Virus record (IMG/VR): IMGVR_UViG_3300046522_000173
Span: 20,274 to 84,273 of that record
Length of the DNA: 64,000 nucleotides
Source of the DNA: a virus
Taxonomy: Duplodnaviria; Heunggongvirae; Uroviricota; Caudoviricetes
Reading direction: 5' to 3' (one strand)
In this document: in pieces, positions 17,762 through 21,921 of the stretch
How the letters are laid out: each line of letters opens with the position of its first letter
Numbering within the stretch: position 1 is the stretch's first letter
Translations under genes and position numbers: made by a program
The notes under the pieces: generated by a model
What the model saw: the letters and a program-made list of their open reading frames with translations, nothing else
The model's database searches: none
What the model was told of the DNA's origin: nothing

Positions 17762-19177
17762 CTAGACGGTGGGGATGGGGGATTTGCCGGAGAAGACTGG
17801 GAGGGAGAATTGGGGCATTCCCTGATTCTTCATTAGGTAGTTCGCGGCATCGGCAATGCAATCTACCTGATCATTTTTTTCATTACGCCCACCAGTGAAG
17901 TATTCCAACTCCATCAGCATGTTTTCAATGAATCTGTCGTCATCCTTGTCCCTAACAATCTTAACTAAGCCAGCTTCCGCCATTGCAAAGAAAGGTTGAG
18001 CACGTTGTAGCTTGCCTGCGTGTCCGCTCACTTTAATTGTCTTAACAGAGATGCCTGCCTCAGAGAGATGGCGGACAAAGAAAAGATTTGCCGCTGCCCC
18101 GCCAGCTCCAGGGTCTTTCGGGATGAGCACAGGTATGTCGAGTCCGTCATCTCGTGCTGTCTCCACAACGTCCTTGAGAACGCCGTCTGTCAGTTTCCTG
18201 TACCTGCGCATATGCTCAATGTACAAACAACCGTCATCTGCTCCACGACTCATAAGGCAACCCGCTGTATAGTCAGGGTCCCTTGCAGAACCTGCGTGAC
18301 TGGGCTCTTCGGACGCTGCAAAATCGTAAGCACGGACCTTGCCAGTTACTCGCAGTGGTGGCCTATCAACAATCTCAACCCAGGACCTTCGGAAGAAGCT
18401 TTCCCCAGCCTCACGAGCTGTCCAGGAACCATGCAAAAATCTTAACTGATTAACATATGGCTGGGACAGGAGGTTCGCCAAGTAGCTGTTGTTTCGCGGG
18501 GGGAGTAAATACGGGTTGTCCATCACTCCGGTCGGCACAAAGCGGAAGCTCTTAGGCATGAATAGTTTATCAGCAGGAAGCTTCTTAATCTCTTCCTCAC
18601 CCATGCCACGAGCGTATATCATGTTGCGTGGCTTGCCGTGCAACTCAAAACACTCTTCTGGGGAATCTGCCCACAAGACTTGGTTCTCGATAGTTACGAA
18701 CCAACGAATCCTGTTTTCAGTCCCTGGAAGGGGTACACCGTCATCCCCTAAACTGTACTCCACCCATTTCTTCAAAAAGCTATTGATGTCAGGGTTGCAC
18801 GATAAGTACATCTGTGGGTAAATCTTGCTGTGGGCCGAACGAATACGGGATAACAAAAATAGGACCTGCTTCTCTGTCCATTTATCACCTGCCTCATCGA
18901 TCAGCACGCGGGTTAATTGGGAACCCTGCCAGGAACCTAAATCATCGTCCGAGGCGATTGCTGAGAAAGCGATGCTCGCCCCGCTGGGGAAACGCCACAC
19001 CATGGCCTGTGATTTATATTCCCCACCAAACTCTTTGTACAATTGGCTCTCATCGATCAAACCACCTTGACGCTTCAATTCCGGTGCCGTTCTACGGAAG
19101 ATCGTACAGCGGAAATGCGGATCGTTAATACCGTCTAGGTTGCGAATCAAGCAAGTCGCAGATTTGCCTCCACCTGC
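17762..19177 (-). CDS. terL: terminase large subunit, exon 2
   Basis: Walker A (AGGGKSAT), Walker B (LIDEAG) and a nuclease domain. The ORF-track start (GTG at 19198) lies inside the putative intron; the true 3' exon is proposed to begin at GCA 19177. Confidence 0.8.
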   Translation of the reverse strand, partial: AGGGKSATCLIRNLDGINDPHFRCTIFRRTAPELKRQGGLIDESQLYKEFGGEYKSQAMVWRFPSGASIAFSAIASDDDLGSWQGSQLTRVLIDEAGDKWTEKQVLFLLSRIRSAHSKIYPQMYLSCNPDINSFLKKWVEYSLGDDGVPLPGTENRIRWFVTIENQVLWADSPEECFELHGKPRNMIYARGMGEEEIKKLPADKLFMPKSFRFVPTGVMDNPYLLPPRNNSYLANLLSQPYVNQLRFLHGSWTAREAGESFFRRSWVEIVDRPPLRVTGKVRAYDFAASEEPSHAGSARDPDYTAGCLMSRGADDGCLYIEHMRRYRKLTDGVLKDVVETARDDGLDIPVLIPKDPGAGGAAANLFFVRHLSEAGISVKTIKVSGHAGKLQRAQPFFAMAEAGLVKIVRDKDDDRFIENMLMELEYFTGGRNEKNDQVDCIADAANYLMKNQGMPQFSLPVFSGKSPIPTV

Positions 19178-19424
19178 CATTAGAGGCTTGTTCAGCACAG
19201 GTCGTTAGTCTGTGCCCGCTTATCAAGCTGCCCCGTATCGCTACGGGGGTCAGGCTATATCTTCCACTACAAAGTAGCTGAACCCTGTTTCCACTCACTT
19301 GAGCGTACTTCCTTTCGGAATAGCCGTCACACGTTCCCTTTCGGGCTTCGCTCGGTGTTGTCTACTAGAGATATTCACCGAATTAAGGGTTTGTTTTTAA
19401 GGCGGAGGCACAGGTATCTCAACC
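19178..19424 (-). other. putative ORF-less group I intron (about 245 nt) interrupting terL at the P-loop
   Basis: Stops in all frames. The minus strand has an R-like element GGTTCAGCTAC (plus 19274-19283) and an S-like element GAAGATATAGCCTGAC (plus 19250-19263) that can form P7 (GCTA/TAGC). Two GAAA tetraloop hairpins lie at plus 19310-19319 and 19336-19345. The 5' exon ends in U and the intron ends in G. Confidence 0.55.
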
Positions 19425-19523
19425 ACCGCCAAGCAAAATAACATCCGTAGTTTTATCTGTAAGGATAAGGCGTTGTTTCTCGCTTGCTGGCCCGTAGACC
19501 TTTTTTTGTTTCTTATCTGTCAT
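19425..19523 (-). CDS. terL: terminase large subunit, exon 1 (34-codon ORF MTDKKQKKVYGPASEKQRLILTDKTTDVILLGGG ending in TGA)
   Basis: ATGA-coupled to the upstream T5orf172 gene stop. Ends as the P-loop glycines begin; splicing to exon 2 gives LLGGAGGGKSAT. Confidence 0.55.
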
Positions 19524-20770
19524 AACTCCCCTATTAAACAGTCGAGCATCTCAATAAGGTTGTAACTCGACAGGTCAACGAAGCACTCCGTGTATCCATC
19601 GAATTTAATATCAGGGTTTCTGTACTCAGCCCTCAACATCCTCAGAAATGCACTCTCGACATAAGCACACTGCGTGCCATGCATCTTGTACTCTTTCGCC
19701 ACAACAAACTTATTGTCAGTTGTTCTGTTGATTTCCTTGGCGCGGTGTGTAGCACTTTTGTTGGTAATTCCGATTTTTGTGACGCCAGATGCCTTGAGCA
19801 CGTATAACGTCCCACCTTTACTGGTATTAAACCCTGCCTTGTTGCACAATGAACAACCCTGTCCCGTAAGGTGCTTCTCGGGTGTCTGCTTAAAACTTTT
19901 CCCGCAAACTCCACACGAGATTGAAATCTTAGTGTTTCGGTTCTTGTAATCGCTGAGCGTGTAAACATACCTTTCACCATGAATCACCTTGGCTTGGTCT
20001 ACAAACAGAGAAGCATCTAGTGTCCTTGCTCTGGCTCCTGCATCAATGGCGCATTTCCTACAACCAGACGGCGCGGCGCCATGTGCAGAGTTTACATGGT
20101 TGTCGAACGAAATTTCAAACACTCCGTGGTCGTAACACCGAACCTTTACCTTATTCTTAACACCCTTGAACTCCACAAGGCTGTAGTCGTAGCGGGTTCC
20201 GTGAACAGCTTTCATTGCAGCTACTGCCTCTTCTTGTGTGTAGCTGCAACTCCCCTTTAGAAATCTACCACTCTTAAGTGCCGCAATCCCAACATTTTTA
20301 ACAGTGCCGTCTTCAAACTCAACATCAAAACGTGAGCCAAGGTGTACTGCCTTTACTGTGGCTGCAAACCCCTCGTTGTTCTTGTAAGCTGTTCCAATTT
20401 CCACTCGTTCACACTCATCCCTGTCTGATGCTGTACCGACCAGAAGTTGCGAACTGTTTGTCCACTTTTGCTTGCCGCTGGCAGCAAACTGCACTAGAAT
20501 TCTCTTGGCGTGCACGTACTCCACAACTTTACAAATCCCTGAGTGGCTGGTTTGGAACTCTTGGCCGACTTGTATCCCATACAGCCGAATAGAGTCATCT
20601 TTAAGTATGCCACTCTTAACTTGTGAGGAATTCGTCCTCTTAACACTGGCTGTGTCTAAGAACCTTACAACGATGTTTGTACTATTGGTGTACTCAAGGA
20701 TTTCGATGTTGCCGTAATTTTGTGTTGGGAGTATATCTCCGACTCGAATTGATGGAGCGTTGATGCCCAT
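19520..20770 (-). CDS. T5orf172 (GIY-YIG superfamily-like) putative free-standing homing endonuclease, paralog of 5276..6250
   Basis: N-terminal Zn-ribbon repeats (HGTRYDYSLVEF..C..HGVFEISF..H..GAAPSGCRKC) and a C-terminal LYVLKASGVTKIGIT..R..E..FDGYTECF block, immediately upstream of terL exon 1. Confidence 0.6.
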   Translation of the reverse strand: MGINAPSIRVGDILPTQNYGNIEILEYTNSTNIVVRFLDTASVKRTNSSQVKSGILKDDSIRLYGIQVGQEFQTSHSGICKVVEYVHAKRILVQFAASGKQKWTNSSQLLVGTASDRDECERVEIGTAYKNNEGFAATVKAVHLGSRFDVEFEDGTVKNVGIAALKSGRFLKGSCSYTQEEAVAAMKAVHGTRYDYSLVEFKGVKNKVKVRCYDHGVFEISFDNHVNSAHGAAPSGCRKCAIDAGARARTLDASLFVDQAKVIHGERYVYTLSDYKNRNTKISISCGVCGKSFKQTPEKHLTGQGCSLCNKAGFNTSKGGTLYVLKASGVTKIGITNKSATHRAKEINRTTDNKFVVAKEYKMHGTQCAYVESAFLRMLRAEYRNPDIKFDGYTECFVDLSSYNLIEMLDCLIGEL

Positions 20771-21921
20771 TGACGTTCCTCTCTACTAGGTTAAATGGTG
20801 TGGCTAGGCGAAGAGTAGAGCTTCGCCAGGAGGATCAATCCGTTCGCCACGTTGAACTTATAACAAACAACAAAAAGCCTGCCAGCATCCCTGCCGACAA
20901 GCCTCATAAGAATTGGTGACGCACCAGCACTCAACCATCCGTACGTCTTAGTGACCTTAGAGCCACCCTCTCCGCTCTTGCCGCTTTCGCAGCTATTGCT
21001 CAATGGAGCTTGAGTCCCGCGAGCAAATTCTATGTACGAATGACTAGGACTATCCTAGAACTTTGGGCTTGTCACCTTGCGTCTAATTCCGCCACCATTC
21101 GTTTGTTACGAGTGTTTGTGTCAGCCCTCGTCGGCTTTTGTGACCTCGACAGTAGTGCTACAACCAGTAAGCTTGTCTTACAACCAGTGAATTCTGTTCG
21201 GCCTGGAATTCCACCAGACTCATTAGCCTCTTCTCGAAGCCTCGTCAGCAGCAACGCTAACAATCCGCAGGTAGGGGATTCTTTAAAATTCCTATTGACA
21301 GCATCTGCTGCCCTTGCTATGATTCTTCACATGAACTGCTAAGACGTACTTGGCCCTGTCTTAGAAAACTTAACCTGCAACAATAAAGGAATAGCGATTG
21401 TTTGCCGGGGGAATTTCTTTGAGAGAAACTTCTGCCTAATGAAGAACAGTTCTGCCAGAGGCCGCCGAAAAGCGGCTTTTGTGCTGGTGCTCTCTGTTGG
21501 ATTTTAACCAACGCGGGATTTCTCCTCCGGGTTACAAAGCCGGTGCAATCGGACGGACTATGCGAAGAGAGCAGATACCCAAACCGTGCAAACAATGCAG
21601 AGGGTTTGGGCGTATGTTTTCAAGGCGGCTCAACTCGTACAAGCGTCAGAGAGGAGGGGCAATGGCCCTGTAGAGGAACCGCCTTGAAAACAGCCTCGTA
21701 AGAAGCTGTGTGCCAATTTTTGGACAGGCGTGGCTTGCCTGAAAGTTGGTGCAGGAGAATCCCCGCTAGAGCTATGTCGTAGTCTTCTTATAGCGGAAAA
21801 TTCAGGTAGGTCTCATGGACCCTGCTCTCCCGTCACTCTCCCTTCCCACAACACCGCAGTCTTCTGCGCACTACCAACAAAAGAATTGTAGCAGAACTTG
21901 TGCTTCTTGTCAACTCTTACG
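20771..21921 (-). other. 1.15-kb ORF-poor structured region (candidate leader, ncRNA or packaging-site region)
   Basis: Only short low-complexity ORFs. Contains a 13-bp long-range inverted repeat GTTTTCAAGGCGG/CCGCCTTGAAAAC (21616-21628 and 21679-21691), a 9-bp stem ACCCAAACC/GGTTTGGGT, tandem 10-bp direct repeats TACAACCAGT at 21159-21168 and 21179-21188, and a plus-strand terminator-like hairpin GCCGC-cgaaaa-GCGGC-TTTT at about 21461-21480. Confidence 0.4.
21884..21912 (-). promoter_or_regulatory. consensus sigma70 promoter cgtaagag-TTGACA-N17-TACAAT firing into the ORF-poor region and the endonuclease/terL genes
   Basis: -35 TTGACA and -10 TACAAT with a 17-nt spacer on the minus strand, directly after the terS-like stop codon. 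Confidence 0.55.

Follow-up and report, generated by a model that had tools for sequence, protein, structure and literature searches.

The terminase locus of the tailed-phage record IMGVR_UViG_3300046522_000173 (Caudoviricetes) raises the question of how a working large subunit can be produced from a gene, terL, whose Walker A motif, or P-loop, is encoded in two separate open reading frames (ORFs). The DNA analyzed was a stretch of 64,000 nucleotides (nt) of this IMG/VR record (positions 20,274 to 84,273), hereafter called the window, and all genes discussed at the terL locus lie on its minus strand. A 34-codon ORF encoding MTDKKQKKVYGPASEKQRLILTDKTTDVILLGGG starts with the ATG at 19523 and is closed by a TGA at 19421..19419. 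The large terL ORF, in which the Pfam domains Terminase_6N and Terminase_6C were matched, runs from an ATG at 19180 to 17762, begins with M-AGGGKSAT, and is followed by the portal gene. Between the two lies a 244-nt insert that contains no ORF and has stop codons in all three frames. Directly upstream, the TGA of an ORF of 416 amino acids (aa) shares bases with the ATG of the 34-codon ORF in an ATGA overlap. Our analysis makes it very likely that terL is split here by a group I intron within its Walker A codons, with a free-standing homing endonuclease gene upstream.

Joining of the Two terL Exons

A preliminary description of this locus, made from the sequence alone, had proposed that the two ORFs are exons of terL separated by a compact, ORF-less group I intron in the Walker A codons, and had suggested aligning the joined exons to TerL homologues. 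Such an alignment was colinear. A search using the joined-exon TerL protein as the query found 813 homologues, of which the uninterrupted ones are approximately 500–506 aa long and read ...TDVILLGGGAGGGKS... without a break. When the two exons are joined and translated, the product is a TerL of 505 aa whose Walker A motif reads LLGGG/AGGGKS, where the slash, here and below, marks the insertion point. The uninterrupted homologue P0002 is 87% identical to this protein across all 505 residues, and six IMG/VR contigs with 83–87% identity are colinear with the joined terL across exactly 1515 nt. When the window was compared by blastn with four intronless relatives (loci L001, L003, L005, and L006), the homology restarted precisely at 19177, and the DNA of exon 1 exhibited 85% nt identity to L005. 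The colinear homologues and this restart place the junction at GGC GGT GGT/GCA GGT GGA GGC AAA. Judged from these alignments, the 34-codon ORF and the large terL ORF are one gene, in which the intron is located between Gly34 and Ala35 of Walker A.

The proposal of a split terL is thus borne out by the homologues and the junction, and also by the covariation described below. The coordinates and strings that accompanied it were all correct when re-read in the sequence, including the U that ends the 5' exon (U19422, the base preceding the intron) and the G that ends the intron (G19178). The junction had been drawn as LLGG/AGGGKS, which places the split in the correct motif, but its exact form is LLGGG/AGGGKS. 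A megablast search of the 3.1-kb region against cultured phages gave no match, indicating that the phage has no close cultured relative. The closest cultured TerL proteins, those of Pseudomonas PAK_P5/KPP10-like phages, are 37% identical, and the window phage represents an uncultured lineage with a genome of approximately 84 kb.

Identification of the Insert as a Group I Intron

The Rfam check of the minus strand that had been suggested returned a match to the full Intron_gpI model (RF00028) at 19450..19231 with E = 6e-8 in an 801-nt search, but its score of 37.7 bits is lower than the curated gathering threshold of 50 bits. Related terL loci were gathered by a protein-anchored search, which was more productive than a DNA pattern; a strict pattern of the intron core found two contigs only in IMG/VR. 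Together with a metagenome scan, which added three new intron-bearing loci (L099, L104, and L115), 17 further inserts of 226–259 nt were found in the same terL P-loop codons of relatives, all homologous to the window insert. The nearest is the L007 intron, which shares 76% nt identity with that of the window. Nine of the relatives' introns exceed the Rfam cut-off, namely those of L024 (89.6 bits), L026 (85.9), L072 (83.1), L083 (74.2), L056 (70.2), L073 (63.7), L007 (61.3), L031 (61.0), and L090 (54.6). Furthermore, the terL intron of the Vibrio phage ICP1, which has been shown experimentally to splice, is also below the threshold at 42.1 bits. Since the relatives pass with 54.6–89.6 bits and a spliced intron scores 42.1 bits, the threshold is too strict for this branch of introns. 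By blastn, the intron core resembles introns of Staphylococcus phages related to Twort, an intron annotated as Intron_gpI in a DNA polymerase gene of the T4-like type, and a sequence in the terL of a Drulisvirus.

A terminal G is present in 17 of the 18 family introns. That of L037 (2249-2521) ends in A if its junction is colinear with those of the other site-A introns, which are inserted at GGG/A; shifting both junctions by one base restores the terminal G, but the 5' exon then ends in G. This copy may have a variant splice site or may be decaying.

Conserved RNA Structure and Covariation

When the 18 introns were analyzed with RNAalifold, the helices P1, P3, P4, P5, P6/P6a, P7.1, P7.2, P9, and P9.2 were obtained, in which 35 of the 47 pairs are compensatory on both sides. 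A hand-drawn full structure that also includes P7, P8, P9.1, and P10 was scored on a splice-site-anchored alignment (n = 14). In this structure, 93.2% of the cells were paired, compared with approximately 40% when the partners were slid by 1–3 columns, and compensatory double changes were observed for 52 of the 71 pairs. None of 500 shuffles equalled any of the observed measures. Single-sequence folding of the window intron recovered the local hairpins (z = −2.5). The intron has neither a P2 helix nor an ORF, and its core extends from P3 to P9 with a P3/P7 pseudoknot. Two extra hairpins, P7.1 and P7.2, which follow the 5' strand of P7 and precede the 3' strand of P3, place it in subgroup IA. 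On the evidence of its sequence, the insert is hence a group I intron of subgroup IA, which is the usual phage type.

The positions of the helices, together with those of the exons and the upstream gene, are listed in Table 1. The U·G wobble at the splice site in P1, U19422·G19409, is invariant (14/14 sequences), and the guide of L073 becomes GCCCCC where its exon is GGGGGU. The compensatory changes in P10 track synonymous changes of the Ala codon as well as the shift between the insertion sites A and B (GGG/A and GG/G, respectively). The invariant G-C pair of P7 is likely the guanosine-binding site, and in the segment of P8, J8/7, and the 3' strand of P7 (19253..19278), GAAGATATAG is nearly invariant across the 18 introns.

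Four strings had been singled out in the insert beforehand (GGTTCAGCTAC, GAAGATATAGCCTGAC, cccGAAAggg, and tccGAAAgga), and all of them are present, although several belong to other elements than those first assigned. The segment GAAGATATAGCC was correctly placed and comprises J8/7 and the 3' strand of P7. By contrast, GGTTCAGCTAC is not the R element but the 3' strand of P3 (AGGGUU), J3/8, and the 5' strand of P8, and of the two GAAA hairpins, one is P6a and the other P7.1, instead of P5 and P9. The P7 helix initially proposed, GCUA with UAGC, was rejected, as its pairing of 52% was reached by 53 of 500 shuffles and thus does not exceed chance; the real P7 consists of GGCUA and UAGCC. In drawing the structure, a GCUUG/CAAGC helix closing the 3' domain (19228..19224 with approximately 19189..19185) was dropped because it is absent in L007, and P9.1 was drawn as the local GCUU/AAGC hairpin.

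Table 1. Coordinates of the features at the terL locus of the window, in the order in which they occur along the minus strand.
Feature	Position	Strand	Description
Free-standing homing-endonuclease-like gene	19520..20770	-	416 aa; N-terminal repeats, CxxC zinc-finger repeats, and C-terminal MUG113/T5orf172-like GIY-YIG-clan domain
terL exon 1	19422..19523	-	34 codons, ending ...LLGGG (GGC GGT GGT), last base U19422; aligns without gaps in order to the N-terminal part of TerL homologues that have no interruption
Group I intron	19178..19421	-	ORF-less, 244 nt, subgroup IA-like; starts with in-frame UGA, ends with G19178
P10	guide 19410..19415	-	ACCUGU with GCAGGU, the first six bases of exon 2 (19177..19172); 92.4% paired, 3/5 pairs compensatory
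P1	guide 19401..19409	-	GCCUCCGCC (internal guide) with GGCGGUGGU of the 5' exon (19430..19422); 97.6% paired
P3	19386..19391 with 19286..19281	-	AACCCU with AGGGUU; 97.6% paired, 5/6 compensatory
P4	19352..19381	-	UCGGUG with CACCGA, enclosing the short P5 hairpin (19371..19361); P4 100% paired, 5/6 compensatory; also in single-sequence folding
P6/P6a	19331..19351	-	Hairpin with GAAA tetraloop (GC...CCC-GAAA-GGG...GU); alignment, RNAalifold, and single-sequence folding
P7	19325..19321 with 19257..19253	-	GGCUA with UAGCC; pseudoknot with P3; 98.6% paired, 3/5 compensatory
P7.1	19320..19309	-	UUCC-GAAA-GGAA; 93.9% paired, 3/4 compensatory
P7.2	19305..19292	-	CGCUC-AAGU-GAGUG; 100% paired, 5/5 compensatory
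P8	19278..19266	-	Hairpin GCUAC-UUU-GUAGU; 5/5 pairs covarying
J8/7	19265..19258	-	GGAAGAUA; conserved
P9	19248..19231	-	CCCCGUA-GCGA-UACGGGG; 94.9% paired, 6/7 compensatory
P9.1	19228..19218	-	GCUU-GAU-AAGC; 86.0% paired, 3/4 compensatory
P9.2	19216..19194	-	GGCACAG...CUGUGCU; 93.9% paired, 6/7 compensatory
terL exon 2	17762..19177	-	AGGGKSAT... to the stop codon; Pfam Terminase_6N and Terminase_6C; homology to intronless relatives starts at 19177

Proposed Splicing Pathway and Non-Intron Readings

From the structure we infer that the intron is catalytic and is spliced in the window phage. The precursor RNA would fold into an IA-type ribozyme, in which the internal guide and the end of exon 1 form P1 with the U·G wobble at the splice site, and the ACCUGU beside the guide pairs with the start of exon 2 as P10. 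Exogenous guanosine would attack after U19422 in the first step, and the freed 3'-OH of exon 1 would attack after the terminal G19178 in the second. The exons would be joined as GGUGGU/GCAGGU to encode the 505-aa TerL with an intact P-loop, GGGAGGGKS, and the predicted ligated-exon cDNA is ...GGCGGTGGT/GCAGGTGGAGGC... On the unspliced RNA, translation would halt at the UGA constituted by the first three intron bases; since this codon opens the intron in frame, a working terminase would be obtained from spliced RNA only.

Several observations weigh against an intron with a homing endonuclease beside it. The Rfam score of the window intron is below the cut-off, and scans of the whole window, run with the gathering threshold or with an E-value threshold, report no intron, so that the short-window scan alone finds it. 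Splicing in this phage is a prediction, and some phage introns splice in vivo only, so strict self-splicing is not guaranteed (PMC11878797). A junction shifted by one base, GGUGGUU/...AAUGG/CAGG, likewise obeys the U...G rule; this candidate, whose product would read GGGSGGGKS, was rejected as the Ala is conserved in homologues and the register of P1 and P10 disagrees. As for the upstream gene, the full-length protein scores 21.7 bits for the Pfam family MUG113, just under the cut-off of 22.3, the T5orf172 family (PF10544) itself was not matched by the ORF in the Pfam search, and both its endonuclease activity and its cleavage target are putative.

If the insert were not an intron, ribosomes would have to cross the 244 nt by a translational bypass of the T4 gene 60 type, or the insert would be a non-splicing element that leaves a pseudogene or a split gene encoding two polypeptides. 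The sub-threshold score of the window copy and the fact that splicing is deduced from sequence are compatible with such readings. However, a complete group I core is present, with the compensatory changes in 52 of the 71 pairs that also vindicate the earlier dismissal of a bypass, and the guides are complementary to the ends of both exons and change in step with them. The homologous inserts that pass the Rfam cut-off and the spliced counterpart in ICP1 argue in the same direction, and a Walker A motif divided between two polypeptides would form no P-loop. The T4 gene 60 bypass skips 50 nt, and we know of no precedent for a bypass of 244 nt. We therefore consider it highly improbable that the insert is anything other than an intron.

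The Putative Endonuclease Gene Upstream of terL

The 416-aa ORF matches phrog_681 of PHROG, annotated as "endonuclease", with E = 1.9e-47. Its isolated C-terminal 106 aa score 25.0 bits for Pfam MUG113 (PF13455; cut-off 22.3), while its middle part is composed of repeated CxxC zinc-finger modules with weak matches to DUF723, DUF4379, and CapR. In NCBIfam, no match was found for this protein or for a 136-aa ORF upstream. Zinc-finger repeats followed by a C-terminal nuclease domain are the architecture described for T5orf172 homing endonucleases (doi 10.1101/2023.03.23.533998). The motifs LYxL...KIGIT...R...E...GYTExF are kept in eight endonuclease homologues that share approximately 35% identity. 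The gene had been named a free-standing T5orf172 endonuclease; its location directly upstream of terL stands, and its probable family is MUG113, which belongs to the GIY-YIG clan and is a sister of T5orf172.

This gene is missing from L001, L005, and L006, which are the closest relatives (83–87% TerL identity) that have no intron and a sufficiently long upstream flank. In comparison with them, it forms an insertion of approximately 1.3 kb that separates the terL start codon from the intergenic region upstream, with the flanks aligned on both sides; the gene would accordingly have entered at this point. Its presence at this fixed position is sporadic, with homologues in L003, L007, L009, L053, L054, L059, and L089. 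These and the window gene constitute the zinc-finger/T5orf172-like class, and two HNH/AP2-like classes, one in L024, L026, L071, and L066 and the other in L032, L056, L072, and L015, occupy the same slot, which is thus filled by three unrelated endonuclease-like classes. Between the window and L007, TerL is 84% identical and the intron 76% identical in nt, but the endonucleases are only about 35% identical, which suggests turnover of endonucleases at a fixed site rather than co-inheritance with the intron. Most likely, the upstream ORF spreads by cutting endonuclease-free relatives near the 5' end of terL.

Introns and Inteins at the P-Loop

Introns of this family were found at four positions, all of them within 15 nt of the P-loop codons. 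The window intron and ten others are inserted at GGG/A, whereas those of L024, L030, L031, L071, and L083 are at GG/G, that of L026 is at GGGAG/G, and that of L073 is at GGGxGGG/K (GGGMGGG/K in its own sequence). At each site, the P1 and P10 guides co-vary with the local exon. The similarity of the intron cores is not sorted by site, as is seen from the 83% identity between L024 (site B) and L072 (site A). One could tentatively suppose that the family has repeatedly re-targeted itself near the TerL P-loop, which fits mobility at the RNA level, in which the intron RNA would reverse-splice into repeated Gly codons (for example, GGUGGU), beside or instead of endonuclease homing. A second group I intron is located further inside terL in L066 (2755-2997) and L071 (2767-2995), with Rfam scores of 83.3 and 81.5 bits, respectively; the terL of L071 accordingly harbours two introns.

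The Walker A codons are targeted by inteins as well, which were identified after GGGK in TerL relatives such as P0026, P0027, P0030, and others. They are removed at the protein level, whereas the window element, with its stops in all frames and its RNA structure, would be removed at the RNA level. An intron and an intein coexist in one P-loop in L031 (1187-1462), L090 (1198-1474), L091 (1020-1296; identical to L118), and L099 (1198-1465), where the intron follows GG or GGG and the intein is 12–15 nt further, starting after GGGK with ALRHGE... or ALAHGE... The terminase P-loop is hence a shared target of introns, inteins, and several endonuclease families. What is more unusual concerns this wider family: four P-loop positions, an intron and an intein in one P-loop, and three endonuclease classes at one position. 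If the neighbouring endonuclease also cuts the P-loop site, this would be a natural system in which an intron, an intein, and an endonuclease compete for one motif.

Relationship between the Intron and the Endonuclease Gene

An endonuclease gene abuts terL in 9 of 15 intron-bearing loci and in 7 of 35 intronless loci (odds ratio 6, Fisher p = 0.009), as counted over unique loci with enough upstream flank by a statistic that ignores kinship. Such an association would be expected from collaborative homing, in which the endonuclease cuts intronless terL at or next to the P-loop insertion site, the intron splits the site and thereby protects its own genome, and both are copied together. Only 102 nt separate the end of the endonuclease gene from the point of intron insertion, and the same arrangement has been discussed in these terms for ICP1, T7-like phages, and cyanophage S-PM2, which are the relevant precedents rather than the T-even phages named at first. 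However, the association does not take shared ancestry into account, endonucleases of the same class are found upstream of intronless terL in L003, L009, L053, L054, and L059, and six of the loci with an intron lack a neighbouring endonuclease gene. The P-loop DNA is identical between L003, which has an endonuclease and no intron, and L005, which has neither; a 48-nt stretch differs at its final base only, two codons past the P-loop. Because these P-loop codons are identical, immunity of L003 to its own homologue would not come from the P-loop. Again, the window and L007 share the intron but differ in their endonucleases. Collaborative homing is plausible here, but we consider it rather unlikely.

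The alternative is that the two are independent neighbours. The endonuclease would target the intergenic region or the start of terL and be immune through its own insertion or nearby polymorphisms, and the intron would spread separately, for instance when co-infecting phages recombine or through reverse splicing, with the conserved 5' end of terL attracting mobile elements. Such occupation of a hot spot may be accompanied by endonuclease turnover, as was proposed for ICP1. It is consistent with the three unrelated endonuclease classes at one position, the occurrence of the intron and the endonuclease each alone, the inteins that target the same P-loop, and the intron family at four positions with matching guides and with similarity unsorted by site. 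The positive association would not be expected under strict independence, but it might nevertheless result from common descent or from a hot spot used by both elements. We give the independent spread of the two elements about an even chance.

Comparison with Known Systems

The kind of element described here is already known from ICP1, in which the terL gap was identified as a spliced intron by RNA sequencing and reverse-transcription PCR, the neighbouring Gp130 was called a T5orf172 homing endonuclease, and collaborative homing was discussed by Barth et al. (doi 10.1101/2023.03.23.533998). In the ICP1 genome (NC_015157), ORF130 ("endonuclease", 74753-75943) has an ATGA overlap with the 33-codon ORF129 (74655-74756), which is followed by a gap of approximately 250 nt and by ORF128, a terL starting with MAGGGKS. 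The window exhibits the same order and spacing, from an endonuclease gene of approximately 400 aa through the ATGA, an exon 1 of 33 or 34 codons, and an ORF-less intron of approximately 250 nt to an exon 2 with MAGGGKS. The insertion point is also the same Gly/Ala position of Walker A (YGG/AGGGKS in ICP1 and GGG/AGGGKS in the window). The two introns, both of them below the Rfam threshold, align in the 5' half and J8/7, and zinc-finger repeats with a C-terminal GIY-YIG-clan domain are common to the two endonucleases. On the other hand, there is little similarity between these endonucleases (23% across the zinc-finger repeats), and splicing was demonstrated experimentally for ICP1 and is predicted for the window. 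TerL is only 27% identical between them, so the window phage belongs to another lineage, in which an element of this kind is present at the identical site. The few phages listed so far with an ORF-less intron and a neighbouring endonuclease gene (ICP1, T7-like phages, and S-PM2) are thus joined by an uncultured lineage.

The window intron also resembles the other subgroup IA introns of phages (T4 td/nrdB/sunY, Twort, SPO1, and Bastillevirinae terL and DNA polymerase), with which it shares the P1–P10 core, the P7.1/P7.2 hairpins between P7 and the 3' strand of P3, J8/7 AAGAUAUAGUC, an in-frame stop at the intron start, and an insertion point within a conserved motif, in a gene for DNA metabolism or packaging (PMC11878797, PMC3984707). 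In Bastillevirinae, group I introns were found in 5 of 52 terL genes, self-splicing was demonstrated in vitro for the terL of SIOphi, and 32 of 45 introns contain an endonuclease ORF in a loop, the average length being approximately 800 nt (PMC11878797). Unlike most of these, the window intron is very compact, lacking P2 and an ORF. Collaborative homing pairs have been described for F-CphI and the psbA intron of cyanophage S-PM2, and for the DNA polymerase introns of T3/T7-like phages and a free-standing endonuclease (PMC3984707, PMC6083498). In both systems, the endonuclease was shown to cut the intron insertion site, whereas the target of the window endonuclease is putative and its class also occurs beside intronless terL. 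The nuclease families differ as well, F-CphI having an Endo VII motif and the window protein a MUG113/T5orf172-like domain.

In the cultured Klebsiella Drulisvirus P284 (PP934444.1; L097, 1292-3950), terL is annotated as two coding sequences around an insert with an ORF for a "hypothetical protein". Over 90 nt in its 5' part, this insert is 76% identical to the window intron; most probably, it is a group I intron with an ORF that has escaped annotation and is located elsewhere in terL.

Annotation of Split terL Genes

The public gene call for the window TerL, P0001 (17762..19180, minus strand), starts at MAGGGKS and comprises 472 aa without half of Walker A. Approximately 33–35 of the 120 best TerL homologues are likewise cut inside the P-loop, with starts such as MAGGGKS, MGAGGGKS, MGGKS, and similar. 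Because about 33 of these 120 are truncated alike, intron-split terL is common in this clade and is systematically mis-annotated. Gene callers and whole-contig Rfam scans miss the intron, and many metagenomic terminases are mis-annotated as a consequence.

A further observation concerns the DNA upstream of the endonuclease gene. The sole tRNA gene of the window is located at 21485..21572 on the minus strand (88 nt) and has a Thr anticodon (UGU), what appears to be a long variable arm, and a CCA end that is encoded in the gene. Its shape is unusual for a tRNA-Thr, and relatives have clusters of tRNA genes upstream of terL.

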